Shown here in pieces: positions 273 to 61,696 of a stretch of 64,000 bases of DNA. Under the pieces are notes generated by a model. It did not search any database. It was not told where the DNA came from and worked only from the letters and a program-made list of their open reading frames with translations. The stretch is from a virus. The stretch lies in the IMG/VR virus record IMGVR_UViG_3300020156_000025, positions 1-64,000 of that record; one strand, written 5' to 3'. Position 1 is the first letter of the stretch; each line of letters starts with the position of its first letter. The translations under genes were made by a program, and so were the position numbers.

Positions 273-952
273 TCGCGTTCAACAGGCAATGGATACTGGC
301 CCTGCCGCCGCGCACGGGATCGACCGCCCTTGTGACCGACTTGCGGGAGGAGGGCGGACCGCATGCCGTGGACGGGTTCCACCATACGCCGCTGTCCCGC
401 TACCTTTCCTCGTTCAATGCGTGGCCGGAGGGGTTCACGGGGGTGGTGCTTTACCGGGACCCTGCGGAGAGGCTGGCGTCCGCGTGGTTCCACTCCGTGA
501 CCCAGCACGAGAATGTCCAGCAGGGGATGGGGGTGTTCCGGGTGGACCGGCAGGACTGGAAGATATTCCGGGACTGGGCCAGACAGACGCTCGTGAACAC
601 GTTGGTCCAGAGGGACCGCTACAAGTGGCCGCAGGACATGATCGCCACGGGAAAGGGGCCGCATTACCGGAGGCACGTGTTGACGTGGTCGCTGCCGTGC
701 GCGTGGTGGGCCGGAGGGCTCAGGCACGTGCCGGGTATCATGACATCGCTGGACGGGTTGAAATTGTTCCACCCCGACATGGTGCAGCGCACGGGGCTGG
801 GAGCCAGAGGCGGCACGAGCAACCGCACCAAGAACCACGCGCCGCCCTTGTTCGATGCCGTGACGCTGCTGCGCGACGAATTCGGTAAACGGCTGGAGCG
901 TATTTATGCGGATGACTTCAAGGTTCTTGCAAACTGTGCAAAGCAGGGCTAG
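269..952 (+). CDS. sulfotransferase family 2-like protein
   Basis: 5'-PSB-like PPRTGSTAL, 3'-PB-like RDPAERLASAW, C-terminal IYADDF; start chosen at the ATGA overlap. Confidence 0.65.
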   Translation: MIAFNRQWILALPPRTGSTALVTDLREEGGPHAVDGFHHTPLSRYLSSFNAWPEGFTGVVLYRDPAERLASAWFHSVTQHENVQQGMGVFRVDRQDWKIFRDWARQTLVNTLVQRDRYKWPQDMIATGKGPHYRRHVLTWSLPCAWWAGGLRHVPGIMTSLDGLKLFHPDMVQRTGLGARGGTSNRTKNHAPPLFDAVTLLRDEFGKRLERIYADDFKVLANCAKQG

Positions 953-963
953 ACCGGGGAGGT

Positions 964-1599
964 ATGAACGAGCAACCGACGGGTGACGGGGTAAACCATG
1001 CGAGATTCCTGATCGATGGACCGGAAGGGGAGAGGGTAGCGGTATCGCGCGCGGAACAGGTGTCTTGGTTGAAGGAGCGTCATCCGCTGGCCCGGTTCGG
1101 GCACATGCGGACGTGGGACATCGGGGCGTGCGTGGGGCAGTTCGGAAAGGCGCTGCTCGACGCGGAGTTGATCTTCCGGGAGGACTACTTGGGGTGGGAA
1201 CCGTTCCGCGACCAATACGAGCCGCACGTGACCGGTGCCGATGTAATGTTCCCGCACGTCGTGGTGCAACCGGCGGAGGCGATGGGAGAGTTCGTGTTCC
1301 GGAAGCCGGAGCCGAAGTTCGATCTGATCGCGTTCAACCACGTGCTGGAGCATCTGGACGATCCGCTTGAAGCGTTGGACCTTGCGGAGGTCGCCTTGCG
1401 CAACCGCGACGCGAGGATAATGGTGGCGGTGCCGCATTCGGACGACCAATGGGCGTGGGCGGAGGAGGGGCACCTGTGGATGTTCAACGACGTGACGCTG
1501 GCGCGGGTGGCGGACAGGGCAGGACTGTCGGTGAAGGACTCGCGCGTGGTGTCGTTCGCGCCGGGACGGAAGGAACTCTGGATGATGCTGGGGAGATGA
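964..1599 (+). CDS. class I SAM-dependent methyltransferase
   Basis: Motif I DIGACVG and FDLIAFNHVLEHLDDP...VAVP...GHLWMF, typical of glycan-associated Methyltransf_23 proteins. Confidence 0.8.
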   Translation: MNEQPTGDGVNHARFLIDGPEGERVAVSRAEQVSWLKERHPLARFGHMRTWDIGACVGQFGKALLDAELIFREDYLGWEPFRDQYEPHVTGADVMFPHVVVQPAEAMGEFVFRKPEPKFDLIAFNHVLEHLDDPLEALDLAEVALRNRDARIMVAVPHSDDQWAWAEEGHLWMFNDVTLARVADRAGLSVKDSRVVSFAPGRKELWMMLGR

Positions 1600-1868
1600 G
1601 CAACGGGCACAAGGACATACCCGTGACGGGAGACGGTGGCGGGCAGGGGGGTAGGATAGTCTACCGTTCGTGGCCGCTGTCGATTCCGGTGGGGAGCATG
1701 CTGTCGTGCCGGAAGGAATCGCCCGTCCTTGCCGCGGCCATAGTCGTGATCGAGAAGACGATGGCGAAGAAAGGCATCGAGACTTTCAAGCGATACGGGA
1801 ACCTGATCGTGACGGAACGGGAATGGGTGGGGGCGTTCCACGAGGGGGACGTGCCGGGGGAGCCTTGA
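1596..1868 (+). CDS. hypothetical protein
   Basis: ATGA-coupled to the methyltransferase stop; fills the gap. Confidence 0.45.
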   Translation: MSNGHKDIPVTGDGGGQGGRIVYRSWPLSIPVGSMLSCRKESPVLAAAIVVIEKTMAKKGIETFKRYGNLIVTEREWVGAFHEGDVPGEP

Positions 1869-1889
1869 CGGGAGGGGGACATCGGTGGC

Positions 1890-2237
1890 ATGTTCCCTCC
1901 CGAGATGCAAAATCTGGTCATAAAACGCGGGGCGATCATCGATTTGACGATCAAGGGTAAGAACGCGGAGGGGGAGGACTTCCCGTTTCCCGCGGAATGG
2001 CCCGTGGCCGGGGAGGTCCGGGATTATGCCGAAGCCACACCCGTGCGGCTCGATCTGGAGCCGGTGATCGAGGACGGGGTGATCCGGGTGAAGATATCCT
2101 CGCAGCCGCTTCCGCCGCAGGAATACGAGCTGGGGATCGTGGTGACGGACACCACCACCGATCCGTCCCTGCCCGCACCGTATTGGACGGAGACCGTGAA
2201 GCTGACCGTGCAGCCCGCCCTTCCGGGGGTGGCCTGA
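1890..2237 (+). CDS. small beta-rich virion/tail-associated protein (BppU-N-like)
   Basis: IKRGAIIDLTI...GVIRVKIS...YELGIVVTD...TETVKLTV pattern directly upstream of the tailspike; start may be ATG 1905. Confidence 0.5.
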   Translation: MFPPEMQNLVIKRGAIIDLTIKGKNAEGEDFPFPAEWPVAGEVRDYAEATPVRLDLEPVIEDGVIRVKISSQPLPPQEYELGIVVTDTTTDPSLPAPYWTETVKLTVQPALPGVA

Positions 2238-2270: not shown

Positions 2271-4931
2271 ATGCCTGAATTAACCACGCTGATTATCCAA
2301 GTGGGGAGTCCGTCGCCCCTGTCCACGCTGTTGATCAACTTCGGCCCGGCGGGAAGGGACGGGGGCTCCGAGGACGACGCGGTGGACGTGGCTTTCGCGA
2401 TCCACAACGCCCCGCCCTTGTCCACGCCCGCCGATAATGACGAATTAGGGAGGGTGGATAGCACGGATGGCTACACGCTCAAGCGGTGGACTTGGGGTGC
2501 GATGAAGACCGCGATGACCGCCCATAGCGAAACCTTGTTCGCGCCGCTCGCGCATGTGAATGACGTGGGCAATCCGCACGAGGTGACCAAGGCGCAGGTG
2601 GGACTGTCGGAAGTGGACAATACCAGCGATGCCGATAAGCCGGTATCGACCGCGACGCTGGCCGCACTCGCGGGGAAGGCCAGCAGCGTGCACGTGCATG
2701 ACATGTCGGACGTGACGGGGCTGGCGGCTGCGCTGGCGCTGGCCGCACCGTTCTATTCGTGCGAGAGTTTCGGGGCATTGCCTACGGCCAACGCGTCGCA
2801 GAACGTGGCGGCGGTCCAAGCCGCCCTTGACGCCGCCCATGCCGCGGGAGGGGGGACGGTGAAACTGGACCAACCCGGAACCTACGAGGTTGACTCGACC
2901 TTGCGGATCTACTCCTACACGGATTTCCTGCTTGGCCCGGGGGTGGTATTCAAGAAGGTCGCGGAATACGGGGAGTTCCTCGCCAATGACGGGGCATGGA
3001 CGCTGATCAACGACGACCGCATCCGCGTGGTGGGGCTGGTATTGGACGCGAACAACACCTCGGACATCGAGGCGATCCAGCCGGGGCTGAGGGGTCACGT
3101 GTCGTGGTATAATATTACCAACGTCCGCATGGAGCGGTGCAGGATCTATAACGGTGGCACGGCCCAATTCTCGGTCCATTGCTGTGCGTTCTACAATGCA
3201 TTTTTCGATGACATGGATTTCCCCGACGGGAAGGCAGGTATCCAGACAGGATCGGGGCAGAACCTCTACGTGCGGAATATCCGCGGGGATACGTTCGATG
3301 ACCTTCTCGCCTTGAACGCGCACGACTGGCCGGTGTCGTCGCCCAAGACCGGGGACCTGTCCAACGTGGTGATCGAGAACATGATCACCCGGTCGCAGCA
3401 CCGGATCATGGCGGGTTCGTGGACGACGTGGGCCGCTACCACCTACAGCGCGGGAGACCGCGTGGTCAGCTCCGGGAACGTCTATATCGCCTGCTTGCCC
3501 GTGAACACGTCGGCGGCTTCCACAGTGGCTCCGACCCATACCGCGGGGATCGTGACCGGAGCGGACGGCATCCCGTGGCGCTGGGAATATGCGGGCACGA
3601 ACACGGAGACCAACGTGCACAATATCACCTACCGGGATTGTAGGTTCTATTCGCAGGGTGTGCTGATGGATTCCAACAACGACATGGGCGGCTACTACCG
3701 GATGGTGGTGCCGGGGACCGAGGGCAATTCGTGCGTCGATGGCGTCACCTTTGAAAACTGCATCTTCGATCCCGACACCCCGGGGGCCGTGCTGTTGTCG
3801 GGACAGTCGCGCTACACGCGGGCCGTGTTCCGCAATTGCACGTTCAAGGGCGCGAATATCGGGGCGATCATCTCGCATACCCCCTACACGGTCCCGACCA
3901 GCTATGTCTCCGCCCATACCGCGGTGGTGGATTTCACGGACTGCCTTTTCCACAACACGGCATGGATCGCGGGGATCATCAGTAATTTGAAAGGGAACTT
4001 CACGACGATCCTGACCGGCCAAGGGAACCGGATGTCCGCCCTTGCGTTTATCAGCGGGTCGATCAACCGGGTGGATGGATTCGATCTGCCGGTGCGCGTG
4101 GACCATATCACCGCGCCGGTTTCGGGTGACCGGGCAAGGCTCAGGCTCACGTCGGGGGCCATCCTGCCGGGACTGGCCACGTATCGCAGGGGACGCTGGG
4201 TGCCGGTGGACGCGGACCAGCTCGGACCCGCGAACCGGCGGTTGATGATGTGCAACGCCACCACGTTCACGAGCGGTTCCGCGGCTGCCGCGGGCACGAT
4301 CTACCCGGGCGGGGCGTTGCACCTTACCGCTGGCTCCGCCGCCATCGGGTGGGCGATGGGGCGACTGCAACAGGTGGGGACCTACCAGAGTGAGGACGGG
4401 ACCAACTTCAACGCGCCGTTCGTGCTGCCGCTCACCATTACCGGGCAGGCGATTGACGGGGGCGTGATCCGCGTGCTCCACGGCGCTCCCTTGGCACTCA
4501 ATACCGGGTTCACGGCGAACGCGGCGGGTCCGGCCTACACTTCGAGGGGTATCGGTATCGAGATCGGCCGCGAGGGCGGCACCGGGAATCAAAAGGCGAG
4601 GATCATCGCGCACGACGGCACGAGCTACCGGCAATCGGCGTGGCTGGACCTAGGGGTCGCCCCGGGGCGCAACAACGTGTTCTCGTTCGAGTTGCTGAAC
4701 CGCGGGAACGGCACGGTGGAACTCTACTGGGGTCGGCCCACGTCGGGGAACCTGTCCGGTTCGATCATCGGTGAAACGGCGGGGGTGTCCATCTCCAACG
4801 GTCCGACCGGGGTGGGAGCCAACGCGGCGACTTGGGCCGTTGCCACGGCGGACAACTCCACCGTCCCGGTCAATGCGAATTCGATCCGTGCGGTGATCTA
4901 CCCGACATCGCTCGAATATCTGGCGTTCTAG
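2271..4931 (+). CDS. tailspike / receptor-binding protein with pectate-lyase-like beta-helix
   Basis: Fibre repeat NPHEVTKAQVGLSEVDNTSDADKPVS; beta-helix start FGA...AVQAALDAA...GGGTVKL..PGTY; repeated F.NC.F coils; CBM-like insert. Confidence 0.8.
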   Translation: MPELTTLIIQVGSPSPLSTLLINFGPAGRDGGSEDDAVDVAFAIHNAPPLSTPADNDELGRVDSTDGYTLKRWTWGAMKTAMTAHSETLFAPLAHVNDVGNPHEVTKAQVGLSEVDNTSDADKPVSTATLAALAGKASSVHVHDMSDVTGLAAALALAAPFYSCESFGALPTANASQNVAAVQAALDAAHAAGGGTVKLDQPGTYEVDSTLRIYSYTDFLLGPGVVFKKVAEYGEFLANDGAWTLINDDRIRVVGLVLDANNTSDIEAIQPGLRGHVSWYNITNVRMERCRIYNGGTAQFSVHCCAFYNAFFDDMDFPDGKAGIQTGSGQNLYVRNIRGDTFDDLLALNAHDWPVSSPKTGDLSNVVIENMITRSQHRIMAGSWTTWAATTYSAGDRVVSSGNVYIACLPVNTSAASTVAPTHTAGIVTGADGIPWRWEYAGTNTETNVHNITYRDCRFYSQGVLMDSNNDMGGYYRMVVPGTEGNSCVDGVTFENCIFDPDTPGAVLLSGQSRYTRAVFRNCTFKGANIGAIISHTPYTVPTSYVSAHTAVVDFTDCLFHNTAWIAGIISNLKGNFTTILTGQGNRMSALAFISGSINRVDGFDLPVRVDHITAPVSGDRARLRLTSGAILPGLATYRRGRWVPVDADQLGPANRRLMMCNATTFTSGSAAAAGTIYPGGALHLTAGSAAIGWAMGRLQQVGTYQSEDGTNFNAPFVLPLTITGQAIDGGVIRVLHGAPLALNTGFTANAAGPAYTSRGIGIEIGREGGTGNQKARIIAHDGTSYRQSAWLDLGVAPGRNNVFSFELLNRGNGTVELYWGRPTSGNLSGSIIGETAGVSISNGPTGVGANAATWAVATADNSTVPVNANSIRAVIYPTSLEYLAF

Positions 4932-5017: not shown

Positions 5018-5530
5018 ATGCCCGCCCAAACATTCAATCCCGTGACAGGGAAGTCGTGCGTCAAGCGATACGCCGACATTCCGTTCGCCCACAGGCAGCC
5101 GTTCCACGAGGGGCACTGCCATTTCATCCACGGCCATTCGTGGAGCTTCGAGTTCGAGTTCTCGGCGGACGCGCTGGATCACCGGGGCTTCGTGCAGGAC
5201 TTCGGTGATTTGAAGTGGCTGGGGCAGCTCATCACGGAGAACTTTGATCACGCGCTGGTGTTGCAAGAGGACGATCCGGAGCTGGCGTTCCTGATCCAAG
5301 CCCTGCGGGTGAAGGCGGAAGACCCGCAACACGCGCTGGCCAAATTGACCGTCCTTCCGTCATCGTCGAGTGAGGGGATCGCGGACTGGCTGTTCCAATG
5401 GGTGGGGCCTATGGTCTCGGACCGCTCCGGGGGGAGGGTGAAGTTGGACCGGGTGACGGTGTTCGAGGACTCGCGCAATTCCGCGACCGCGTGGGCACCG
5501 CCGGAGTTCACGGGCCTGATGGCGGGGTAG
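5018..5530 (+). CDS. queD: 6-carboxytetrahydropterin synthase
   Basis: FAHR...CHFIHGHSW...VQDFGDLK...FDH...SSE...VFED motifs. Confidence 0.9.
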   Translation: MPAQTFNPVTGKSCVKRYADIPFAHRQPFHEGHCHFIHGHSWSFEFEFSADALDHRGFVQDFGDLKWLGQLITENFDHALVLQEDDPELAFLIQALRVKAEDPQHALAKLTVLPSSSSEGIADWLFQWVGPMVSDRSGGRVKLDRVTVFEDSRNSATAWAPPEFTGLMAG

Positions 5531-5556
5531 TTCCGCCCGTCCTTCCAAAAACGATT

Positions 5557-6291
5557 ATGCAAACCGTGCAAATAGAGGAGCGCCGGTTGCTGCCGGTGCA
5601 GGAACGTTTCCATGCCTTCCAAGGGGAGGGCGTCCATATGGGGCGTAGTGCGTTTTTCATCCGCACCTACGGGTGTCCGGTGCAATGCCCGTGGTGCGAT
5701 TCCGCGGGGACGTGGCACCATGCCTACCGGCCCGAGGTGGACAAGCTGCGCATGTCGGTCGAGATGCTGGTGGAGGAGGCGCTGTTCTGCAACGCGGAGT
5801 TCGTGGTCGTGACGGGCGGGGAACCGCTGATCCATGACCTTGCGCCGCTCGTGAATGCGTTGCACGGGGAGGGGATTCAGGTGCATCTGGAGACCTGCGG
5901 TGCGTTCCCGATCAAAGGGGGTGCGATCTTCGACTGGATCACGCTGTCGCCGAAGGACAACCGCCCGCCCTTGAAGCACATGCTGCATCTTGCGGACGAG
6001 TTCAAGATCATCGTGGAGAAGCCGGAGGACATTGAACGGTGGTTCGACGTGATCCTTTACGAGACGAACGAATTGAGGGCGGAGACCGTGCAGGTATGGT
6101 TGCACCCGGAGTGGTCGCAACGGGAGAACCCCGCGGTGCTGGGGGCCATCTGCGAGGCGGTAAAGGGGCGGTCGCAGAAGCCGCGCTTCCGTGCCGGGTG
6201 GCAGATGCACAAACCCTACATGGTGGACGCGGGGGATGCACGGACCGCGCCGCGCGTGCCGCTGGGGGGAGACCCGGCGAGGGGGTATTGA
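5557..6291 (+). CDS. queE: 7-carboxy-7-deazaguanine synthase (radical SAM)
   Basis: ERFHAFQGEG...FIRTYGCPVQCPWCDS (CxxxCxxC), VVTGGEP, LETCG, TLSPK, QMHK. Confidence 0.92.
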   Translation: MQTVQIEERRLLPVQERFHAFQGEGVHMGRSAFFIRTYGCPVQCPWCDSAGTWHHAYRPEVDKLRMSVEMLVEEALFCNAEFVVVTGGEPLIHDLAPLVNALHGEGIQVHLETCGAFPIKGGAIFDWITLSPKDNRPPLKHMLHLADEFKIIVEKPEDIERWFDVILYETNELRAETVQVWLHPEWSQRENPAVLGAICEAVKGRSQKPRFRAGWQMHKPYMVDAGDARTAPRVPLGGDPARGY

Positions 6292-7647: not shown

Positions 7648-9114
7648 ATGAATCCGATGCTTACGGACAAGCAATACGCGGAGGTCTATAACCGGATGGT
7701 GCTGGCCGCGCGGCAATGTTTCATCACGTTCCTGTATCTCATGTTCCCGCAGGGGATGCCGGAGACGACATACAAGCTCGCGCCCTTGCACCTGTTCCTC
7801 GCGCAGAAGGTGATGCAGGCGTTCAGGCGTGAGGGGGCGAAGAACCGCGCGGTGTCGGTGCCGCCCCAGCACGGGAAAAGCCGGATGCTGGTGGTGAGGA
7901 CCGTGGCGTGGTTGATCGGGGCAAGGCCGGGAATCTCGATCGCCATTACCGGGTTCTCGCACTCGCTGCTGGTGGATTTCCTCAAGGAGGTGGAGGACCT
8001 GATGCAGACGCCCGCCTACCAGAGGATATTCCCGGGGGTGGTGCCGCGCTATGGACGGAACCGCGACGCGTCGAAATATTTCACGAACGGGGCATCGGTG
8101 GTGGCGAAGGCCGCGGGGTCTAAGCTGACGGGACGCCGGGTGGACTGGCTGATCATCGACGACGCGCACGCGGGACGGGCGGAGGCGGAGTCGGAGGTGC
8201 TGCGGAGCAAGGTGATCCAGTGGTTTTTCGCCGACTGCAAAACCCGCCTTTCGCAGGGGGCGCAGGTGTTCATCATCGGAACGAGATGGCATCCGGCGGA
8301 CCTGATCGGGTTCCTGACTTCGGACGAATACACGAAGCAGTTGAAGGACGCGGGACACGAGGAGGAGTTGTTCGAGGTGACGAACCTGCGCGCGATTTCG
8401 GAGGAGGGGGAGGAGGACCCGCTGGGGCGCGCGCCCGGGGAAGCGTTGTTCCCGGAGGAGCGACCGTTGCGGATGATGCAGGCACTCAAGGCCGCTCTTC
8501 CCGGATACGAGTGGGATTCGCAATACCGGGGGTCGCCGCGCTCGACGATGGGCGGGCAGGTGGACATATCCAAGCTGCGCTATCTGGACGCGGGGGCGGT
8601 GCCGTGGGACTACCTCGACGTGGCGCGGGGATGGGACTTGGCCATCTCGGAAAAGCAGGGGGCGGACTATACGGCGGGGGCGCTGGTGGGGAGGCACCGG
8701 CATACGGGGGACTACTATATCATCGACATGTTCCGGCGGAGGATGGCGTGGTCGAAACTGCGGGCGAACATGGTCAACGTGTCGCTGGAGGACCGCAGGG
8801 TGCGGAACGTGATGCGGGTGGGAATCGAAGGGGTGGCGGGATTCGACGTGGTATTTTCCGAGGTCCGGGACCTGCTGCTGGGAGAGGTGCAGGTGCTCAA
8901 GAAGAATCCGCCGAAGGGCGGGAAGTTGATCCGCGCGCAACCGTGGCTGAACCGGATCGAGGGTGGCAAGGTGTGGGTGGTGAACGGGCCGTGGAAAAAG
9001 GACTTTCTGGAGGAGCTGTTGCAGTTCCCGGAAGGCTCGCACGATGACCAGGTAGACGCGGTGTCGATCGGGTTCGAGATGCTGGAGCATCGCGAGAAAC
9101 TGCTGATCGCATAA
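7648..9114 (+). CDS. terL: terminase large subunit
   Basis: Walker A-like PPQHGKS, LIIDD, IGTRWH; nuclease domain WDLA...DYT and HDDQVDA. Confidence 0.95.
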   Translation: MNPMLTDKQYAEVYNRMVLAARQCFITFLYLMFPQGMPETTYKLAPLHLFLAQKVMQAFRREGAKNRAVSVPPQHGKSRMLVVRTVAWLIGARPGISIAITGFSHSLLVDFLKEVEDLMQTPAYQRIFPGVVPRYGRNRDASKYFTNGASVVAKAAGSKLTGRRVDWLIIDDAHAGRAEAESEVLRSKVIQWFFADCKTRLSQGAQVFIIGTRWHPADLIGFLTSDEYTKQLKDAGHEEELFEVTNLRAISEEGEEDPLGRAPGEALFPEERPLRMMQALKAALPGYEWDSQYRGSPRSTMGGQVDISKLRYLDAGAVPWDYLDVARGWDLAISEKQGADYTAGALVGRHRHTGDYYIIDMFRRRMAWSKLRANMVNVSLEDRRVRNVMRVGIEGVAGFDVVFSEVRDLLLGEVQVLKKNPPKGGKLIRAQPWLNRIEGGKVWVVNGPWKKDFLEELLQFPEGSHDDQVDAVSIGFEMLEHREKLLIA

Positions 9115-11815: not shown

Positions 11816-11846
11816 CCGTCAAGCCCCCGGAAGGGTATTGGCGGGC

Positions 11847-12428
11847 ATGCAAGTGAACCGCGATAAAGGGGTGATCGTGTTGAACAATCCCCGGACGGGG
11901 GGGCCTTCGGTTGCTCGCCTGATGGGGTGCGCCCCGATCGATCCGGGGGCGGTGCATCTCACGTCGAAGGAGGCCCGGGCCTCGGTGTCCGCGGAGGAGT
12001 GGCGGGAGTGGACGAAGATCGTCACCGTGCGTGATCCGGTGGAGCGGTTCAGGTCAACGTGCGCGGCCCTCGGGGTGGAGCCGGGGCAGGCGCTGGAAAC
12101 TCTGGAAGCAACCCCGGTGGATGAATGGGACCGGGTGTGGGGGCATCAAGTGCGCTGGCTCGCGGGCAAGCTGGACGTGGTGCTGCTGACCCGGCATATC
12201 GCGAACTTCGCGAACCACGGGCAGTTCGGACGGGGCACGGTGCGCAGTAACGAGACCGGGGCTGGGAGAGCGGGAGGAACGACCCCGGGACTGGAGGAGA
12301 GGGTAAGGGCGCTGTATGCGGTGGACTATGCCAAGTTCGAGAAGCTCCGGCTGTGGCACCCCGACCCGGAGGTGGTCATGTTCGTGGGCGGGGAATGCGT
12401 GGCGTGCCGCGCGCAACGGAAGCGCTAA
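11847..12428 (+). CDS. sulfotransferase family 2-like protein
   Basis: NPRTGGPSV, VRDPVERFRS, HQVRWL, LYAVDYAKF. Confidence 0.65.
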   Translation: MQVNRDKGVIVLNNPRTGGPSVARLMGCAPIDPGAVHLTSKEARASVSAEEWREWTKIVTVRDPVERFRSTCAALGVEPGQALETLEATPVDEWDRVWGHQVRWLAGKLDVVLLTRHIANFANHGQFGRGTVRSNETGAGRAGGTTPGLEERVRALYAVDYAKFEKLRLWHPDPEVVMFVGGECVACRAQRKR

Positions 12429-12527
12429 AAGGGGCGGAGGTAACAGCCCGCCCTTGCCCGCGCTGGACACGATCCGCGGGGTGTGGCACAAAGGATTCGC
12501 AGCACACGTTCACGACATACCCACGCA

Positions 12528-38845: not shown

Positions 38846-38873
38846 TTGCTAAACGAAACCCGGACTGTATCCT
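38846..38873 (+). promoter_or_regulatory. early promoter repeat
   Basis: TTGCTA-AACGAAACCCGGACTG-TATCCT. Confidence 0.7.
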
Positions 38874-38900
38874 GTGGACACATTCGATCTGCTTCCGCCC

Positions 38901-39236: not shown

Positions 39237-39286
39237 TTTTTGCACACTGTTCAAAACCGCCTGAAACCCTCCACCCTCACACGACC

Positions 39287-42634: not shown

Positions 42635-42684
42635 AACCCGCCCGCCCTTGACTCCCGCCCTCTCATCTTCCGATCCGAATTCTC

Positions 42685-52133: not shown

Positions 52134-52826
52134 ATGCCCGTGAAACCATCGACCAAACCCTCCCGTCCCGATCCCGTTGCATCGTTCGTGTCGGACGTGA
52201 CCCGTCTGCTGCTGCCGGTGACCCCGGGGGAGGTGAGGGACCCGGCGCGGCTGGTCCGCTTCGTGCAGGACGTGATCGCGGACGCTCCCCTTGCCGGACA
52301 TCACGACCACGGAACCGGGCACTGGCACTCGGTGCTGCGGAACGGGTGCAGGCTGTGCCCGGAGACGGGAGAAGGAGAGGGGATGGACGGGGACCGTGCC
52401 AAAATCCGCGCTACGGTGGGGTTGTTCGCGCTGTTCCATGACTGCCGCCGCACGCACCCTTACGCCGATGTGTCGCACGGGGCCTTGGCGCAGGGCTACC
52501 TGCTGTCTCTCCGCAACGTGCTCCGTTCACTCGGGGTTCCGGACCGGGTGGTGCTCGCCGCGGGGTGGGCGTGCGCGTGGCATACCGTGATCGACAAGCC
52601 GCGGGAGAGTGTGTTGTTCGGGGCCGTGGACCTGCGCATCGCGGGACGGAAGATGCTGCCGGGTTGGAAGCCGTGGTGGTTCGATGCCATCGGAACCTGC
52701 CTCGACGCGGACCGGCTGGATTTGCCCCGGGTGGGGATCGCGCCGTCGCCGGAATACCTGTGGACGGACAGGGCGAAAGAAGAGGCAAGGAACAACACCG
52801 CCCTTCGCGGGGCGAAAGCGGAATGA
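52134..52826 (+). CDS. HD-domain phosphohydrolase-like protein
   Basis: HG..HW..V..NG, FALFHDCRR, HG, HT, TCLDADRLDL.RVGI.P. Confidence 0.75.
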   Translation: MPVKPSTKPSRPDPVASFVSDVTRLLLPVTPGEVRDPARLVRFVQDVIADAPLAGHHDHGTGHWHSVLRNGCRLCPETGEGEGMDGDRAKIRATVGLFALFHDCRRTHPYADVSHGALAQGYLLSLRNVLRSLGVPDRVVLAAGWACAWHTVIDKPRESVLFGAVDLRIAGRKMLPGWKPWWFDAIGTCLDADRLDLPRVGIAPSPEYLWTDRAKEEARNNTALRGAKAE

Positions 52827-53161
52827 GCTTGCAGGTCTACATGGTCAGGCCGGTGATGGCGTTCCGCTCGGAATTTCCCGTTGTCGCGCACGTGCGGAGG
52901 TGGGTGGACCCGGGGGCCGCGCTGGCGTTCGAGGCGGAATCCTTGGAGGATGCGGAGCGGATCGCGTGGAACCGGTTGCGGGGAAAATTCATACCCAAGA
53001 CCCCGGCGTTGCGGGTAGCGGGGCTGTGCGTGGTCGAAATGGAGGGGGAGGAAGCGGAGATCGCGCGCGCCGCCGTGCGCGGGGCTGCTCCGGCCCCGCC
53101 GGGGCCGGTGGAAGAGGGGAATTCAGGAACGGAGGAAACCGGAACCGGGGACGCGGAATGA
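52823..53161 (+). CDS. hypothetical protein
   Basis: ATGA-coupled on both sides. Confidence 0.55.
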   Translation: MSLQVYMVRPVMAFRSEFPVVAHVRRWVDPGAALAFEAESLEDAERIAWNRLRGKFIPKTPALRVAGLCVVEMEGEEAEIARAAVRGAAPAPPGPVEEGNSGTEETGTGDAE

Positions 53162-54165
53162 ACGAAGGAAAACTGCGCTTCATCATGGGGCAGCTCGGGG
53201 TCGAGATCTTGCACGTGAACGACAAGGGGTGGATGGTGGCGAGGTGTCCGCTGGCCCCCTATACGCATGACCGTGCGATTGACCGCACCCCGTCCTTCAA
53301 TGTCCGCGCGTCGGAAAACAAGCTCTCCGGATTCCATTGTTTCCAGTGCGGTGAGTCGGGCCGGATTTCTAAGCTAATCAACAAGCTGGGGCATTACCGG
53401 GAGGAGGATTATGCGCATTTGGCGTTGTTGGCGGAGATGGCGGAGACGCCGGAACATTTCGGGGAGTTCGAGGAGGACGAGCGGGTGGTGGAGGAGCCGG
53501 AATTGGACAAGCTGGTGTATCTGACCATGTATCCCCTGCCTTATGAGGAGAGGGAGGCGAGGGAGTATCTGGAGCGGCGCGGGATCGGGAGAGATACCGC
53601 CCGCTTGCTGGAGTTGCGGTATGACCCGGAGAAACGACGCATCCTGTTCCCGGTGTTCGATTGGCAGCACGGATTGAAGGGGTTTTCGGGGCGGACGATC
53701 ATCCCGGACGAGCGCAGGCCGAAGCATGTGCCGAAGGTGAAGGACTATGTGGGGATGAAAAAGGAGCGCGTCGTGCTGGGGGAGCACCTGATCCAGACGG
53801 AGCATCCGTTGCTGGTAGTGGAGGGGTTGTTTGCCTATGCGCACGTCGTGGAGGTGGGGGCGAGGGAGTTTTGCAACCCGGTGGCGACGCTGGGGTCGGC
53901 AATGTCTCGGACGCAACGGAATTTGATCGTAGCGTGGGACAGGCCGGTCATCATGTTATACGACGATGACGCGGCGGGGGACAAGGGGTTGTTCGGGAAT
54001 CTGGATCGCGCGGCGGGGAAGCATGAGGGGGGAGGAGCGATTGACTTGTTGAAGATGCATGTGCCGGTGGGGGTGGGAATGTTCCCGAAGCGGACCGGGG
54101 ACCCGGACGATCTCACGACCGGGGAATTGCGACGCATCGTGACGCGGGGGACCGAATGGAAATAG
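53158..54165 (+). CDS. DNA primase (Zn finger + TOPRIM)
   Basis: CP....H...PSF...CFQCG; YLERRGI; RILFP...GFSGR; VVEG; YDDDAAG; DPDD. Confidence 0.88.
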   Translation: MNEGKLRFIMGQLGVEILHVNDKGWMVARCPLAPYTHDRAIDRTPSFNVRASENKLSGFHCFQCGESGRISKLINKLGHYREEDYAHLALLAEMAETPEHFGEFEEDERVVEEPELDKLVYLTMYPLPYEEREAREYLERRGIGRDTARLLELRYDPEKRRILFPVFDWQHGLKGFSGRTIIPDERRPKHVPKVKDYVGMKKERVVLGEHLIQTEHPLLVVEGLFAYAHVVEVGAREFCNPVATLGSAMSRTQRNLIVAWDRPVIMLYDDDAAGDKGLFGNLDRAAGKHEGGGAIDLLKMHVPVGVGMFPKRTGDPDDLTTGELRRIVTRGTEWK

Positions 54166-54221: not shown

Positions 54222-54605
54222 ATGTCCGACGAACACCCAACCGAAGCCGTCCGCGCCATGATCCGGGGCGTTTTCGGAAGCTGCGAAGACTTCGAAGACC
54301 GTCCTTGCGCGGTGGCGGTGGTGGAGTTGCCCGGGGGTGCGGTGATGGTGGCGATGGAGGACAACGGGTGCGTGGTGGTGCCCGATTTGCGGGAGTTGTC
54401 GGTGCTGCGGCTGGTCGCGGCTGGATTCGACTACTTCACCGCGGAGAGACTTTCGGTGTGGCTGGCCGGGACAACTTTGCAAACCGTGCAAAGCTCCGGA
54501 CCGGAGACACCGTTGATGGAAAGCAGCGAGGCTGCATCGAACCGCCCCGGAGGGGCATTGAAAGAAGAAACAAACCAAACGACACAGGACAATGGCCAAG
54601 AATAA
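54222..54605 (+). CDS. hypothetical protein
   Basis: ORF 8 nt after the promoter -10. Confidence 0.55.
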   Translation: MSDEHPTEAVRAMIRGVFGSCEDFEDRPCAVAVVELPGGAVMVAMEDNGCVVVPDLRELSVLRLVAAGFDYFTAERLSVWLAGTTLQTVQSSGPETPLMESSEAASNRPGGALKEETNQTTQDNGQE

Positions 54606-55764
54606 CAGGGACGACGAAGAGTGGGGGCAGACCGGACAAGCCGCCCTTGAACGCATGAACCGTGCCGACGAGGAACATGCCAAGCGGAAGGCCCGCGGTT
54701 TCATGCCGCTGCGCTTCTGGTTGAGCAACACGCCGGAGGCGATCAAGAAGGGGGACAACGAGTGCGAGCTGGTGATCCTCGACGATTGCGTGGTCTCGGA
54801 CAAGCCGGGGAAGGGAGCCATCCTGATCCGGGAGCACAACCTGCAAGGGCCGGACGGGAAGTGGGGGAATCACGAATCGTGCGCCGCCGATTTCGACGAT
54901 TGCCCGATTTGCGCCAAGACGGGCAAGGAGGGATATCACATCCTGTTCCTGACCGTGCTGGTGTTGAAGCCGTGGGAATCGAAGGACAAGAAGAGATCGT
55001 CGGAGTATTCCAAGATGCTGCTGCCGATTTTCCTCAGCCAACGGGACACGTTCCTCGACCTCCAGAAACATGCGCTCAAGAGCAGGGGCACGATGCGGGG
55101 CATGAAAATCCGCTTGCGCCGCGGGAAGGACTCCAAGCGGTCGATCGGGGAACCGGTGCTTATGGAGGACGGGAACATGTTCAAGGTCATGTCGGAGAAG
55201 TGGCTGGAGAAATGGTTCGGCCACGAGGCGGTGATTTCCCGCGACGGCAAGACCGTGCTCAAGGAGGCGAACGAGGACATCCAGCCGTTCGACTACAAGA
55301 AATTGTTCCCGAAGCCCGACGTGGAGGAGTTGCGCGAGCGATTCGGGGGCAAGACCCGGGCAGGCTCGAAGCGTGAGTTCGAGGAGGAGTTCCCGGACCA
55401 GCAGACGAACCGCGTGGGTGGTCGCCGCCGTTTCGACGATGACGACGATGACCCGGAGGACGACATTCCGGGGAACGCCGGGGCTGCGGCCAAGAAGCAG
55501 GGCGCGAAGGGGCGCTTTGCGGACGACGAGGACGAGCCCGAGGAAACGCCTGCCGCCGGGAGGGCCGGTAAGGCGGACGCGGACGAGGGGGACGATGATC
55601 CGCCCGTGCGCTCGCGCCGCCCGTCAACGGCGAGGGAGGAAACCGGGGATGCGCCGGTCCGTTCCCGCCGGACGGGGGGCACAGCCGCTGCATCCGCTGC
55701 GAAAGAACCGATCGGGGACGATGATCCGGACGACCCGGACGCCGACGATGGCTGGAACGACTGA
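54592..55764 (+). CDS. putative single-stranded DNA-binding protein (gp32-like)
   Basis: RFWL...EH...C......CPIC Zn site; very acidic disordered C-terminus ending DDGWND; replication context. Confidence 0.65.
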   Translation: MAKNNRDDEEWGQTGQAALERMNRADEEHAKRKARGFMPLRFWLSNTPEAIKKGDNECELVILDDCVVSDKPGKGAILIREHNLQGPDGKWGNHESCAADFDDCPICAKTGKEGYHILFLTVLVLKPWESKDKKRSSEYSKMLLPIFLSQRDTFLDLQKHALKSRGTMRGMKIRLRRGKDSKRSIGEPVLMEDGNMFKVMSEKWLEKWFGHEAVISRDGKTVLKEANEDIQPFDYKKLFPKPDVEELRERFGGKTRAGSKREFEEEFPDQQTNRVGGRRRFDDDDDDPEDDIPGNAGAAAKKQGAKGRFADDEDEPEETPAAGRAGKADADEGDDDPPVRSRRPSTAREETGDAPVRSRRTGGTAAASAAKEPIGDDDPDDPDADDGWND

Positions 55765-55805
55765 TCCGCCCTTGACCGCTTGAACCGACCACGGGGGAAC
55801 GCACG

Positions 55806-57299
55806 ATGAAACGAGTGAACTGCAAGGCAACGAACGCCACGTCCGGAACCACGCCCGGAACCGCACGGGTGGGGGCGATGGTGGGGTTGCCGCTGGAATG
55901 GTTTTCCCGCGAGGAAGCCATCCGGCTGAGGAAGTCGTTGACGTGCACCCCCGTGGTTTCGTCGGTGGCGCTGTCGTATGGACCGCCGCCTGAACCGATC
56001 GAACAATACCGGGTGGACCGGGATGCCGGGGTGGTTCACGTGCCGCTGTGCACGGGGTTGAGGTGGCTGCGGGAGAACCGGAAGCCGTGGGTGGACGAGC
56101 GGGTAAAGGGGGAGGACCTGACCTATCCGCGCGGACCCCGGGCGAGGGACGAGGGGCAACAGGAATTCTTCAATGCGCTGCTTGCGGGAATGCTGTTGCA
56201 GTGGACGCCGGAGGGGGAGGGAGGGGTGTTCGCGCAGGCTCCGACGGGGAGCGGCAAGACCGTGGCGCTGCTGTGGTGCATTGCACGGGTGGGGAAACCC
56301 GCGCTGGTAATCGTGCCGTCCGTCGAACTCGCCCTTCAATGGAAGCAGGAGGCGATGGACAAGCTCGGGTTGGAGGACGCGCAGGTGGGGATCGTGGGAG
56401 GTGGGTCGAAGACGGGATGGAAGGGGAAGCATCTCGTGGTGGCGGTGATCAACTCGGCGGTGAAACAGGGGGAGGAGTTTTGCAAATCGTTCGGGATCGT
56501 GGGATGGGACGAGGGGCACAGGGTCCCCGCCAACACGTTCTCGCGCTCCTTGACCATGTTCCCGGCGGCAATCCGGGTGGTGTTGTCCGCGACGCCGGAG
56601 CGCAAGGACGGGATGCACGTGATGATCCATAACGCGGTGGGGGAGGTGTCGGTGGCTTCCAAGGTGAGGGTGATGCCGCTGGTTTACATGGAGACGAATT
56701 ACCGGGATACCCGTGCGGTGAAGTGGGGGGATCTCCAACTGTCCCGGATTCTCACGCTGATTTCCAAGGACGAGGTGCGGAACGGATGGATCGGGAGGAA
56801 AGCCGCGGAGCTGGTGCTGCGCGAGGGGCGTTGCGTGCTGGTGCTGTCGGACCGGATCGAACAACTCTACCGGATCGAACAACACGCCTTGCGCGCGGGG
56901 GTGCCCGCGGAGGCGATCGGGACTTTCGCCGGGCAGCAGGTGACGGGCATTTCCAAGCAACGCGGGCGCAAGGTGGTGGAAGGGGGGGAGGTATCGCGGG
57001 AGGCCCGGAAGAGGATCAAAACCGACGAAGGGGTGCGGTTGATATTGGCGACGTTCGGGAGCATGAAGGAGGGGGTGGATATTCCGCGCATAGATGCCGG
57101 GATCGAGGCGATGCCGAAATCCACCGCGGTGCAGGCTTGCGGACGCGCCCGCCGATACATGGAAGGGAAGAGGACTCCCGTGTGGTATTCGATTGTGGAT
57201 ACGGGGGTGCCGATGCTAAAAGGATTCGCTTCGGCCCGGAGGAAAGAACTGACCCGGGCGAAGAATGTCACTTTCAAACTCATACCGGACATCGAATGA
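55806..57299 (+). CDS. superfamily II DNA helicase
   Basis: APTGSGKT, DEGH, LSATPER.DG, EGVDIP, QACGRARR. Confidence 0.9.
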   Translation: MKRVNCKATNATSGTTPGTARVGAMVGLPLEWFSREEAIRLRKSLTCTPVVSSVALSYGPPPEPIEQYRVDRDAGVVHVPLCTGLRWLRENRKPWVDERVKGEDLTYPRGPRARDEGQQEFFNALLAGMLLQWTPEGEGGVFAQAPTGSGKTVALLWCIARVGKPALVIVPSVELALQWKQEAMDKLGLEDAQVGIVGGGSKTGWKGKHLVVAVINSAVKQGEEFCKSFGIVGWDEGHRVPANTFSRSLTMFPAAIRVVLSATPERKDGMHVMIHNAVGEVSVASKVRVMPLVYMETNYRDTRAVKWGDLQLSRILTLISKDEVRNGWIGRKAAELVLREGRCVLVLSDRIEQLYRIEQHALRAGVPAEAIGTFAGQQVTGISKQRGRKVVEGGEVSREARKRIKTDEGVRLILATFGSMKEGVDIPRIDAGIEAMPKSTAVQACGRARRYMEGKRTPVWYSIVDTGVPMLKGFASARRKELTRAKNVTFKLIPDIE

Positions 57300-58361: not shown

Positions 58362-59657
58362 ATGCCTGCGAAGAAAGCCGCCAAGAAGACCGCGACGAAA
58401 CAAGCCAAGGGGAACGACGCGCCCGTCCGTTCCCGCACCGGAGGGGGAGGGGAGCTAGCCCGACTGAGGACGGAGATCAATGCCAAGAAAGGACCGGACA
58501 CGGTGATGACGGGGAACACCCTGCCGCCCGCGCGACATATCCCGACCGGATCGTTCCTGTTGGACCTTGCCACGATGGGGGGAATTCCGGAGCGGCAGGC
58601 GACGATGCTTTATGGTTACGAATCGTCGGGGAAGACCGCGGTGCTGATGCGGAACATTGCCGAGTTCCAGCGAAAATATCCGAAGCAGGTCGCGGTGCTG
58701 ATCGATGCGGAGCACATGTATGATCCGCTGTGGGCGGCGCAGTTGGGGGTGGACACGTCCCGATTGGAGGTAGCTAGGCCGGAGACCGGGGAGGAGGCGG
58801 TGGACGTGTTCATCGCCATGATGGAGTGTCTGGAGGTGGGGTATATTGCGCTGGATTCCGTGCCTACGTGCGTGCCGCAGGTGGTGGTGGAGAGGTCGGC
58901 GGAAGACGACACGATGGCTTCCCTTGCCCGGTTGATGGGTAAGTTCTGCTCCAAGGTGTTGACGACGTGGGGTAAGGAGCGCAAGCGGGGGCACTATGTC
59001 ACGGTGGCGTATATCAACCAGTTCCGGTCCAAGGTGGGGCTGGTGTTCGGGGACCCGCGAACGCTGCCCGGTGGCAGGCAGATCAATCACTTGCCGACGA
59101 CCAAGATCGAACTCAAGGGGGACGAGGTGATGGGGGAGGACTCGGTGGGAAACAACGTCTCGCTCCACAACAAAATGACATTCAAGGTGACGAAGGCCAA
59201 GAACGGCTGTTCGATCCGCTCCGGGGAGGTGATGATGGTCATGTCGCCCGACAACGAGCACGGGATGCCGACGGGGGCTTACGACGATTACAAGACCGTG
59301 TTGGTGTATGCGCAACGCTTCGGGCTGTTGACGGGGGCGGGGGCGAACTACCGGTTGGACCTGCTGGGATATGCCAAGATGAAGCTGGGGGACATCGAGC
59401 GCGCGCTGCGGCGCGACCAAGGGAAATTCGACCGGCTCAAGGCGTGCATGATCGTCATGCAACGCGTGTCCAAAAACCTGCCGCCCTTGCCGCCCGACAA
59501 TTTTCTCGTGGGACCGGGAGTGACGGTGCCTGCCGAATTCATTGCCGTCGTGGTGAGGGACCACGAGCGTAAGAAAAACGCCGAATCGCCTCCCGCGCCC
59601 GCGGTGGAGGAAGATGACGGCTTCGACGATAGCGACGAAGAGGACGAAGCGGCTTGA
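58362..59657 (+). CDS. recA: RecA-family recombinase
   Basis: IPTGS..LD...GGIP, YGYESSGKT, IDAEH, LDSV, ARLM, INQFR.KVG..FG.P..PGG. Confidence 0.93.
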   Translation: MPAKKAAKKTATKQAKGNDAPVRSRTGGGGELARLRTEINAKKGPDTVMTGNTLPPARHIPTGSFLLDLATMGGIPERQATMLYGYESSGKTAVLMRNIAEFQRKYPKQVAVLIDAEHMYDPLWAAQLGVDTSRLEVARPETGEEAVDVFIAMMECLEVGYIALDSVPTCVPQVVVERSAEDDTMASLARLMGKFCSKVLTTWGKERKRGHYVTVAYINQFRSKVGLVFGDPRTLPGGRQINHLPTTKIELKGDEVMGEDSVGNNVSLHNKMTFKVTKAKNGCSIRSGEVMMVMSPDNEHGMPTGAYDDYKTVLVYAQRFGLLTGAGANYRLDLLGYAKMKLGDIERALRRDQGKFDRLKACMIVMQRVSKNLPPLPPDNFLVGPGVTVPAEFIAVVVRDHERKKNAESPPAPAVEEDDGFDDSDEEDEAA

Positions 59658-59680
59658 ACCCCTGACGGGAGGATACTGCC

Positions 59681-60280
59681 GTGCCTGAGAGAGACATTCC
59701 CTTGTCGCAGCTATTCGAGCTGGTGGAGAAGCCCAAGAAGGGTATTTGCGTGGTCAAATACTGCCGGAAGAAGCGTGCGGTCACGAGCACACTGTGCGCG
59801 ATGCACAAGATGCATGCGTTCCGGATGCGCAACCCGTTGCTGGCGACCTACCTCCGGTTGCGGGACGGGGCCAAGCGCCGGGGGCTGGAGTTCGGATTGA
59901 CGCGCGAACAGTTCCGCGAGCTGTGCGAGATCACCGGGTATCTGGAGGGGAAAGGAACGAGCCCGTTGTCCATGACGCTCGACCGGATCGATGCGCGGAG
60001 GGGATATGTGCCGGGAAACTTGCAGGTGATGACGTTGCGGGACAACGTGGCGAAGGGGAACCGGGAGAGGGAAATCACGTTCCGGGACGGGATACGGATT
60101 CCGTGGACGGAGATTTCGGTGCAGGCCGAACTGTTCAATGCCCGGGAAGTCGAACGGAGGAAAAGCTACGTGGTGTATTTCCGGGGGGAGGAGCGAACCG
60201 CCCCGCCCTTGCCTGACATGCAGGGGAGACATTGGCTGGACGATGATGCCGGTGATGATACAGGGAACGAACCGTTTTGA
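59681..60280 (+). CDS. HNH-like endonuclease
   Basis: AKRRGLEF.LT...C..TG...LDRID..RGY.PGN....N..K. Confidence 0.7.
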   Translation: MPERDIPLSQLFELVEKPKKGICVVKYCRKKRAVTSTLCAMHKMHAFRMRNPLLATYLRLRDGAKRRGLEFGLTREQFRELCEITGYLEGKGTSPLSMTLDRIDARRGYVPGNLQVMTLRDNVAKGNREREITFRDGIRIPWTEISVQAELFNAREVERRKSYVVYFRGEERTAPPLPDMQGRHWLDDDAGDDTGNEPF

Positions 60281-60284
60281 AGCT

Positions 60285-60677
60285 ATGAACGAGGATTACC
60301 GATCGAGACGTGGACTGGCCGTGCCGAAAAGGGAGCGCGGGGTGAAAACGGTGTCGCATGTGCGGGCACCGAAGCAGGAGAGGGCAATGGCCGAGAGGCT
60401 GGGGGGCAGGTGCACGCCCGCCAGCGGATCGCGGGACGTGAAGGGGGACGTGAGGGTGGAGGGGGTGCTGCGTCTGGAATGCAAGAACACGACCAAGCAA
60501 TCGTTCTCGGTGACGCGGGAGATGATCGAGAAGATCGAGCAAGCCGCGATCAACGCCGGGGAATTGCCCGCGGTGCAGATAGACTTCATCGACGCGCGCG
60601 GAAACGTGGAGGCCAGTGTGGCGGTGGTGCCGTGCTGGGTGCTGGACTCGCTGGCACAGGGAAGGGGGGAGGGATGA
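60285..60677 (+). CDS. PD-(D/E)XK nuclease, Hjc-type resolvase-like
   Basis: QERAMA..LGG....ASGS...KGDV......ECKNT. Confidence 0.7.
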   Translation: MNEDYRSRRGLAVPKRERGVKTVSHVRAPKQERAMAERLGGRCTPASGSRDVKGDVRVEGVLRLECKNTTKQSFSVTREMIEKIEQAAINAGELPAVQIDFIDARGNVEASVAVVPCWVLDSLAQGRGEG

Positions 60678-61696
60678 GTCTTGCCCGCCGCGTGTTGCAG
60701 ACGATGCGGGAACCCCGGAATCCCGGGCCGCAGAGCGTTCCGGTGCGCTCGCGCCGTCCTGTTTTGCAAACCGTGCAAACCGAGAGTCCCGCCGCCGGAA
60801 CGGAAGAGGAGGAGGAGGACGAGCCGTGCGTGACGGCGGGATGGGACGTGGAGCAGGCGTTCGTGACCCGCGCCGCCCTTGTGATGGACCGACAGGGGGA
60901 GGAGTCCCGGACGGGTAGCGAGCTAATCCACCTGTCTTCCATGCTGGCGAAAGACTGGTGCCCGAGGAGACACGTGTTGGCGGCGCGACACGGGGAACGC
61001 CAACTCAAGAGGGTGATGGCTCAGGACCGGATCGTGTGGGAGATGGGACGGGCGGCGGAAAGGCACCTGCGGAACCAGTTCATCGCGTCGCACGGGAGGA
61101 CTCGGGTGGTGGGCAGATGGCAATGTGCGTGCGAGGCGCTCAAGGTGGACGGAAGGGGGCTGTCTGCCGCCGCCTTGCGTTCGGGCAGGCATCGCTGCGC
61201 ACGTTGCAACGGGAACCCGATACACTACGGGGAGCTTCCGGTGACGGGGGACAACCTGACGGGTTCCCCGGACTTGCAATTCATTGAGGGTGCCTCGGTG
61301 GGGCGGCACGTCACCGAGATCAAATCGATCAACAAGCGGGAATACGACCTGCTGACGGGTCCGCTGCCGGTGCACGTGCTCCAGTTGTCGGGCTATGTGC
61401 TGATGCTGCGGGCGGCGGGGGTGGTGGTCGATACAGCCCGGGTGGCGTATGTCTGCAAGGACTACGTGCCGCCGGGAACCAGTCCCTACAAGGAGTATGT
61501 GGTGATGCGACCGGGGCTGGAGTTGCCCGCCGCGCAACGGGCCGGGATCGGGCTGATCCAAGAGCAGGCGTCCGCGCTGGGAGCCACGCTCAGGAACTCG
61601 GGGCCTTTGCCGCCCCGGCTGACCAAGTGCACGGCTCCGACCGCGACGGCGGCGAAGGGGTGCAGCCAGTGCGCGCTGTGCTTTTCCTTGGACTGA
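60674..61696 (+). CDS. Cas4-like PD-(D/E)XK exonuclease
   Basis: WCPR, G.PD, EIKS, QLSGY, C-terminal C...C..C...C cluster; internal CxC/CxxC insert. Confidence 0.72.
   Translation: MSLARRVLQTMREPRNPGPQSVPVRSRRPVLQTVQTESPAAGTEEEEEDEPCVTAGWDVEQAFVTRAALVMDRQGEESRTGSELIHLSSMLAKDWCPRRHVLAARHGERQLKRVMAQDRIVWEMGRAAERHLRNQFIASHGRTRVVGRWQCACEALKVDGRGLSAAALRSGRHRCARCNGNPIHYGELPVTGDNLTGSPDLQFIEGASVGRHVTEIKSINKREYDLLTGPLPVHVLQLSGYVLMLRAAGVVVDTARVAYVCKDYVPPGTSPYKEYVVMRPGLELPAAQRAGIGLIQEQASALGATLRNSGPLPPRLTKCTAPTATAAKGCSQCALCFSLD

Follow-up and report, generated by a model that had tools for sequence, protein, structure and literature searches.

A strand-polar octamer recurring along a soil phage genome, tentatively read as a Chi-type DNA signal

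The stretch analysed here, referred to throughout as the window, comprises positions 1-64,000 of the IMG/VR record IMGVR_UViG_3300020156_000025, a phage genome of 89,984 bp recovered from a soil metagenome. The octamer CGCCCTTG recurs along one strand of this genome at a density of about one copy per 1.3-1.5 kb, and its nature is the subject of this report. By gene content, the phage is a siphovirus with a large terminase, an HK97-type portal, a prohead protease, a capsid protein, and a tape-measure protein; glycosyl- and sulfotransferases are encoded in the tail-gene region. Replication genes comprise an AAA+ ATPase, a DnaB-like helicase, a DnaG-type primase, an SF2 helicase, RecA, a Cas4-like exonuclease, and a family A DNA polymerase with a weak UDG-like part, and the right arm carries RNase H, a NUDIX protein, a 2OG-Fe(II) oxygenase, and a QueC-like domain. 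A gene call based on G+C content at third codon positions (GC3) placed 83 genes, covering 71,517 nt, on the plus strand and four doubtful ones on the minus strand. The G+C content is 62-66%, and the plus strand is G-rich throughout, with a GC skew of +0.07 to +0.22.

The window holds 49 exact copies of CGCCCTTG, 48 on the plus strand and one on the minus strand. The first plus-strand copy starts at 325, and the last occupies 60874-60881. These figures bear out an earlier annotation made from the letters alone (the sequence-only reading), which had noticed at least 47 plus-strand copies between 325 and 60881 and a single copy on the opposite strand. Its expectation of two to three copies per strand was about right (roughly 1.9), and its estimate of one copy per 1.3 kb agrees with the mean gap in the window. 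Across the whole record, the two strands are far from carrying similar counts, with 59 forward copies and 1 reverse copy, compared with 5 and 12 for the backwards-read control word. CGCCCTTG ranks first among the octamers of the genome, as does CCGCCCTTG (46:0) among its 9-mers. The flanks follow a pattern as well: the 59 copies are preceded by C (46), T (10), or G (3) and never by A, and are followed by C (32), A (14), T (12), and once by G. Because these flanking bases are constrained, the functional word is about 10 nt long, YCGCCCTTGH, a form present 55:0 in the record, or 611 per Mb on one strand. The heptamer CGCCCTT stands at 79:7 and the variant CGCCCTTC at 15:2. Other one-mismatch variants are non-polar, such as TGCCCTTG (9:5) and CGTCCTTG (10:8).

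The excess persists under null models of increasing strictness. Dinucleotide-preserving shuffles gave a mean of 3.76 copies over both strands with a maximum of 8, and none of the 100 reached 49. The 83 plus-strand genes contain 50 forward copies and one reverse copy. Against these 50, permutation of synonymous codons within genes yielded 3.07 +/- 1.75 copies (largest 9, n=300), codon permutation yielded 1.90, and a deliberately over-constrained swap that keeps neighbouring bases yielded 22.1 (largest 29). The dicodon-preserving Euler shuffle leaves all dicodon counts intact and with them a good part of the word. It gave 15.0 +/- 3.3 copies (largest 25, n=200); the enrichment is therefore not lost under the shuffle on which the sequence-only reading had made its claim depend. 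When all octamers were scored against the synonymous-shuffle null, the CGCCCTTG family ranked first with a z of 27, and the only other strong family was the palindrome TTTGCAAA. The 8-10-mer is enriched roughly 20-30-fold on one strand.

Reading frame and codon choice point in the same direction. The 59 copies comprise 34 in the frame xxC-GCC-CTT-G, 13 in xCG-CCC-TTG, 3 in CGC-CCT-TGx, and 9 outside called genes, so that the two frames named at first stand confirmed and the total rises to three. The 50 copies in called genes lie anywhere from 4% to 98% of gene length. GCC-CTT encodes 42 of the 247 Ala-Leu pairs, where 8.4 would be expected, and CCC-TTG encodes 22 of the 117 Pro-Leu pairs, where 6.6 would be expected; CTT accounts for 9.7% of leucine codons. 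The three copies that had been placed between genes do fall in gaps of the gene call (Table 1). Selection on CGCCCTTG acts at the nucleotide level and not on protein. Taken together, the data support a genuine signal, polar by strand, tied neither to codons nor to frame, and Chi-like in its statistics.

Copies are also spaced more evenly than chance would place them. Gaps in the window average 1,288 bp and range from 243 to 3,308 bp, with a coefficient of variation (CV) of 0.587, compared with 0.97 +/- 0.13 in simulations; a CV as low arose in about 1 of 20,000 simulations, and a smallest gap as large was equally rare (about 1 in 20,000). A copy lies within 3.3 kb of every point in the window. 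Counts per 10 kb along the record run 7, 6, 10, 9, 8, 6, 5, 4, and 4, and density thus drops somewhat in the right arm. The spacing tracks genome distance and not gene boundaries. Folding energy at the 59 sites equals that at random sites, and no second motif was found at a fixed offset from them.

Table 1. Positions of the word and of other features in the phage genome (window coordinates unless marked as record)
Feature	Position	Strand	Remarks
Array of 48 CGCCCTTG copies	325..60881	+	continues to 85,236 of record, 59 in all
Sole minus-strand copy of CGCCCTTG	3845..3852	-	
Intergenic copy	12449..12456	+	between genes 11838-12428 and portal 12483-13961
Intergenic copy	42643..42650	+	between genes 42143-42634 and 42685-42882
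Intergenic copy	55767..55774	+	between genes 54592-55764 and helicase 55806-57299
QueE-like radical SAM protein	5398-6291		NCBIfam QueE models best, E 1.5e-28, under cut-offs
Large terminase	7648..9114	+	Pfam Terminase_6C E 3.9e-13, Terminase_6N E 2.2e-4
DnaG-type primase	52609..54165	+	NCBIfam dnaG domain E 8.5e-20; weak CHC2 zinc ribbon; candidate reader if the word primes replication
SF2 helicase (ResIII/DEAD)	55806..57299	+	Pfam ResIII E 2.5e-15; candidate phage-side motor
RecA homologue	58362..59657	+	Pfam RecA E 7.7e-42
Cas4-like/PD-(D/E)XK exonuclease	60410..61696	+	PHROG 2506 exonuclease E 2.3e-24; PHROG 1706 CRISPR/Cas-associated E 5.4e-06; candidate reader or partner
QueC-like domain, end of 858-aa protein	record 86779-89355		
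TGCAAACCGTGCA, longer form of TTTGCAAA	5558, 9879, 33682, 37848, 45707, 51555, 54478, 60765; record 77792, 85705	+	10 copies

The record is rated complete by CheckV and classed as 'linear'. Its first 10 bases (1-10) are identical to its last 10 (89975-89984), ACGGGGAGAA, a sign that the assembly closes into a circle. The genome itself is probably a closed circle or terminally redundant and not a simple linear record. The portal's own protein cluster includes a contig of 93,755 bp. Within the window, the assembly graph of the source run breaks at 38677-39343, where word depth rises from about 92 to 164, as expected for a repeat a few hundred bases long. Across three runs, all in the form of contigs, strain divergence came to 2 differences in 20 kb, too little to bear on conservation of the word. 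Short near-identical contigs also occur in two soil metatranscriptome runs from other studies, where cover is low and the material may be DNA. Six-frame searches of the genome found no integrase, resolvase, HNH, TGT, or FtsK domain, and a search for tRNA genes found none. The QueE-like and QueC-like genes hint at 7-deazaguanine chemistry. Such modification was considered as the reader of the word and dropped, given the lack of a TGT/DpdA domain in the genome despite the QueE-like gene and QueC-like domain.

Other over-represented words are present in the same genome. The palindrome TTTGCAAA, with 25 copies in the record, forms the second strongly over-represented family. Its longer form TGCAAACCGTGCA is mostly preceded by TTT and followed by AA, giving a small inverted repeat, TTGCA-N5-TGCAA. 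The family looks like a phage promoter or operator element, and relatives have analogous palindromes of the TTGCAA type or AATCGATT. Purine- or G-rich sense-strand words, such as GGAGGA (197:1) and GGGGGAGG (44:0), are in excess on the plus strand of the record, an excess that reflects long Shine-Dalgarno-like sequences and coding skew. The E. coli-type Chi GCTGGTGG occurs 18:1 and GNTGGTGG occurs 73:5. As a signal in this phage, GCTGGTGG was rejected, with 18 copies seen and 13.5 expected, a number explained by coding; the same holds for the G-rich polar words.

By DNA polymerase, the nearest named phages infect Aeromonas, Rhizobium, Agrobacterium, Rhodobacter, and Pseudomonas (36-46% identity), and the closest portals among public sequences share about 60% identity. 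In the first 50 kb of Aeromonas phage HJ05, Rhizobium phage L338C, and Rhodobacter phage RcMenchie, all listed genes lie on one strand, CGCCCTTG is not enriched (0:2, 0:12, and 0:3, respectively), and no comparably strong polar word of any kind was found. Among the IMG/VR relatives, 4 by polymerase and 57 by portal (24-60% identity), none carries CGCCCTTG at comparable density. A protein-preserving scan covered 29 related stretches of at least 15 kb, with usual best matches at about 1e-5 to 1e-7. One stretch alone stood clear of this background, L068 (IMGVR_UViG_3300014804_000005), for the word AACGGTCG (P 8e-9). In the distantly related lineage of L068 and L047 (portal 45-46% identical), AACGGTCG occurs 9:0 in 21 kb and in three frames, with 8 copies in genes where synonymous shuffles give 0.38. 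In L019, the word TGCGCGTG, which contains the lactococcal Chi heptamer, reached P 3e-7 and fell within the scan background, and the apparent polar word of L056 proved to be a tandem repeat. The suggestion that several relatives have polar words of their own was reduced by the 29-stretch scan to the L068 lineage only. A portal search of genome contigs found no relative, and plasmids gave distant matches only. An Atlas search with the phage RecA returned no host; its nearest clusters are viral RecA.

Beyond these relatives, an IMG/VR scan for two copies of CCGCCCTTG lying 340-370 nt apart returned at least 120 stretches. Among the matches listed, the stretches are unrelated to this phage, and their copies divide into 242 antisense, 84 sense, and 107 unclear under a classifier whose confident calls were correct at about 87-93% of positions in all-plus genomes. 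The sense strand of those listed carries the complement CAAGGGCG, which corresponds to Lys-Gly type codons, and the flanks break the Y...H rule. These stretches were rejected as carriers of the same signal and assigned to coding bias for CAAGGGCG. The sole lookalike among the matches listed is L214 (IMGVR_UViG_3300029747_000168; 9.6 kb, 61.6% G+C), where CGCCCTTG stands at 6:1, with 5 copies on the sense strand of called genes. The classifier scored its copies as 6 sense, 0 antisense, and 1 unclear, and they obey the same flank rule, with no G after the word. L214 has no detectable protein in common with this phage. It hints that more than one phage lineage carries the word, and it may be another phage of the same host. 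Two further stretches among those listed (L201 and L287) have 4 sense copies each, a weak signal.

The sequence-only reading had proposed that the word could identify the host, a use that a scan of total counts in 1,254 sampled bacterial genomes did not sustain. Among 401 Alphaproteobacteria, the octamer reached 316 per Mb and was typically 3-4 times commoner than its reversed control; YCGCCCTTGH peaked at about 68 per Mb in 401 Gammaproteobacteria, 79 in 201 Acidobacteriota, and 88 in 251 Actinomycetota, compared with the 611 per Mb on one phage strand. No outlier appeared among the sampled genomes, although the true host need not be one, and totals cannot show strand skew. Because CAAGGGCG is coding-favoured in G+C-rich genomes, total counts cannot separate a Chi-type word from coding bias, and the scan weighs neither for nor against a host Chi. 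One alphaproteobacterial genome of 53% G+C (G129; contig 1, 1-200000) has 16 times as many copies of the octamer as of the reversed control. They fall on both strands, often within the string G-CGCCCTTG-A, a pattern suggestive of some other repeat that lacks polarity. A literature search with CGCCCTTG and its complement gave nothing useful, the top match being cloning primers that carry the complement, presumably as the start of fluorescent-protein genes.

The best explanation we can offer, held tentatively and short of being probable, is that CGCCCTTG serves as a direction-sensitive Chi-type DNA signal. A host helicase-nuclease of the RecBCD, AddAB, or AdnAB class would load on a free end of the phage DNA, run leftward, and meet 5'-YCGCCCTTGH-3' on the 3'-ended plus strand. 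At the word, such an enzyme would stop degradation and switch to RecA loading, and the phage genome would then be spared and recombined instead of destroyed. The exposed end would be the right-hand one if the last-packaged DNA enters the cell first; a pac cut or a broken fork could also free a right-hand end. The likely packaging direction used in this orientation argument would be set by the large terminase. Identical 10-base record ends and a Terminase_6-type terminase are compatible with permuted headful ends, which the even genome-wide spacing may reflect, and such spacing fits a signal needed soon wherever an end arises. The phage RecA could be the strand-exchange protein that a Chi-activated enzyme loads, although it serves here as context only. 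Chi-rich phages are on record, namely the E. coli lambdoid phage LLS, P1, and Pseudomonas aeruginosa MD8 and its kin (Zheng et al., Genome Res 2025, PMC12315714). As given in the parts of that paper concerned with these phages, LLS has 23 Chi copies, one per 1.86 kb and 20 of them in the active orientation, P1 has one Chi per 1.90 kb, and MD8 has 32 copies, 32/32 on the top strand (PMC12315714). The same parts describe the Chi excess in LLS and MD8 as unexplained by codon usage, and the Chi-rich members of a lambdoid survey as those without a Rec module (PMC12315714).

Several observations weigh against a Chi-type signal. This phage has RecA and a Cas4-like exonuclease, unlike the Chi-rich lambdoids that have no Rec module. 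Its copies are evenly spread and do not concentrate at the right end as in LLS and MD8; no end-clustering is seen, since the 22% of the circle that lies upstream of the terminase region has 12 of the 59 copies. P1, the sole Chi-rich headful phage compared, has Chi sites that are neither polar (31:19) nor even (CV 1.5), and the headful argument is therefore without precedent. CGCCCTTG is C-rich on a G-rich strand, whereas all experimentally defined Chi words known to us are G-rich. No host genome with polar richness in the word was found among the sampled genomes, and the two densest Alphaproteobacteria examined were non-polar (25 of 33 copies antisense in G055; 31:24 in G129). With every gene on the plus strand, the reader may also act on RNA or on the transcribing polymerase.

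Among the alternatives, an unlikely but serious candidate is that a phage enzyme nicks the packaged genome at specific sites in one of its strands, the situation known from T5, phiKMV-like phages, and the Pseudomonas phage tf. Such nicking suits the sequence data no less well than a Chi role does. In tf, according to the sections of the source that treat the nicks, 14 of them lie in a 9-nt consensus, 5'-TACT/RTGMC-3', on the top strand only of a 46,267-bp genome, with near-variants of the consensus confined to the same strand (Glukhov et al., PLoS One 2012, PMC3517423). Here, the exact word (59:1), its 10-nt form (55:0), and the variant CGCCCTTC (15:2) likewise keep to one strand as a bare 8-10-nt word without structure, but TGCCCTTG and CGTCCTTG do not, and the density is about twice that of tf (one per 1.5 kb versus 14 in 46,267 bp). 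All copies but one occupy the non-template strand, the strand on which nicks act as clamp-loading enhancers in T4 late transcription. The enzyme itself is harder to place: no HNH domain was found in the genome, and none of the 70 proteins scanned was recognisable as a nickase, many genes being without a family. Ranked after nicking, and doubtful, is a private signal for a phage-encoded DNA enzyme. The word could be Chi-like for the phage's own SF2 helicase, Cas4-like exonuclease, and RecA, which would spare or process phage DNA there, a role that the sequence-only reading had also suggested, or it could be an extended start site for the DnaG-type primase on a strand that is always the lagging-strand template in one-way replication. 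All four genes are on the phage, the even 1.3-1.5 kb spacing lies within the size range of bacterial Okazaki fragments, the word was not seen as an enriched feature in 57 related IMG/VR stretches or the 3 named relatives, and the related lineage L068/L047 has a different dispersed polar word, AACGGTCG. Yet the primase recognition sites known to us are shorter, at 3-5 nt, and the 428-aa nuclease is far below the size of Chi-reading subunits such as AddB and RecC. Only 1 of the 29 related stretches of at least 15 kb (L068) has a polar word clearly above the usual best scan match; this replisome therefore does not need a long word as a rule. The primase start site suggested by the sequence-only reading gained no positive evidence, with no comparable word in the 3 polymerase relatives or in 26 other related stretches of at least 15 kb. 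L214, if real, also speaks against privacy, having no detectable protein in common with this phage. Somewhat more doubtful again is that the word is a private 'self' mark, made for the phage's own enzymes and not borrowed from the host. YCGCCCTTGH would be read one way by the phage-encoded helicase, nuclease, and RecA acting together, or by a nickase that starts off the loading of a clamp or helicase on the non-template strand, so that phage DNA is processed or spared and unmarked host DNA is not. Under such a scheme, related lineages could carry other words, for example AACGGTCG in L068/L047.

Action through transcription or RNA appears improbable and ranks below all of these. The word would be an oriented roadblock or loading site on the non-template strand, similar to a stoperator, or an RNA word, YCGCCCUUGH, bound by a protein, a small RNA, or a nuclease. 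Since all 83 confidently called genes are on the plus strand and every copy but one is in the sense strand, orientation agrees with this account but is uninformative on its own, and DNA-level and RNA-level readings are inseparable in this genome. In cluster A mycobacteriophages, repressors bind more than 20 asymmetric 13-mers whose orientation follows transcription and which are inactive when reversed (PMC9283540). The present copies lie inside genes in 50 of 59 cases and not in promoters or short intergenic gaps, their spacing follows genome distance, and no RNA structure surrounds them. No integrase or resolvase domain was found in the genome, and lysogenic silencing is therefore unlikely. 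To a by-product of amino-acid, codon, or dicodon usage on a skewed coding strand, with no function at all, we give practically no credence. The plus strand is skewed, and polar words such as GNTGGTGG are indeed explained by coding. But CGCCCTTG is a C-rich word on a G-rich strand, uses minority codons, occurs in three frames and between genes, excludes A before it and nearly excludes G after it, is evenly spaced, and survives every shuffle, including the dicodon-preserving one; the synonymous, dicodon, and all-octamer nulls refute a coding origin as far as shuffles can. A KOPS/FtsK role, also raised by the sequence-only reading, does not hold, with a constant orientation over 90 kb and no FtsK_SpoIIIE domain in the phage. 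Of its label 'Chi/KOPS-like', the Chi part stands on statistics (the commonest octamer, one per 1.3-1.5 kb, on the late-gene strand), and the KOPS part fell for lack of a flip and of FtsK.

If the word is the host's Chi, it would add to the known Chi sequences one from a soil bacterium that has not been studied, and it would serve as a sequence tag linking phages to that host. The Chi-rich strategy would then extend to a large lytic-type siphovirus with its own RecA, with stricter polarity and more even spacing than in any case compared. If the word is instead a nick site or a phage-private signal, it would represent the densest such system described, and its 10 nt would offer a handle for finding the enzyme.

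Over-represented polar words in phages are already a known kind, represented by Chi-rich and nicked phages, and CGCCCTTG can be set against each of the established systems. KOPS and SRS words orient FtsK and SpoIIIE, and KOPS flip at the terminus and serve chromosome dimer resolution; they too include polar over-represented octamers, but no flip occurs here. Phage T7 has all its EcoP15I sites in one orientation, by avoidance of the inverse orientation of a 6-mer. That case shares with ours an asymmetric word kept in one orientation and differs from it in that an 8-10-mer is enriched here. Stoperators resemble the word as many asymmetric sites genome-wide with an orientation that follows transcription, but, in the part of the source that describes them, they are 13-mers that temperate phages have in promoters and in the short spacers between genes (PMC9283540), whereas the present word has 8-10 nt and lies mostly in genes. 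With the tf nicks it has in common an asymmetric consensus of the 9-nt class, confinement to one strand far above chance, and near-variants on that strand. It differs in that the tf nicks were physically demonstrated and this word is known from sequence alone, and in that convergent gene blocks make the strand rule of tf independent of transcription, while all genes run one way here. As in the Chi-rich phages, the word is the commonest octamer, recurs once per 1.3-1.9 kb, and exceeds codon usage. Its copies keep almost entirely to the top strand, as Chi does in LLS and MD8; in this phage that is the strand of the terminase and structural (late) genes. The word differs from GCTGGTGG and GCTGGCGC. 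Unusual here is that polarity close to absolute comes together with regular spacing, with a word rich in C on a strand rich in G, and with a RecA encoded by the phage itself.

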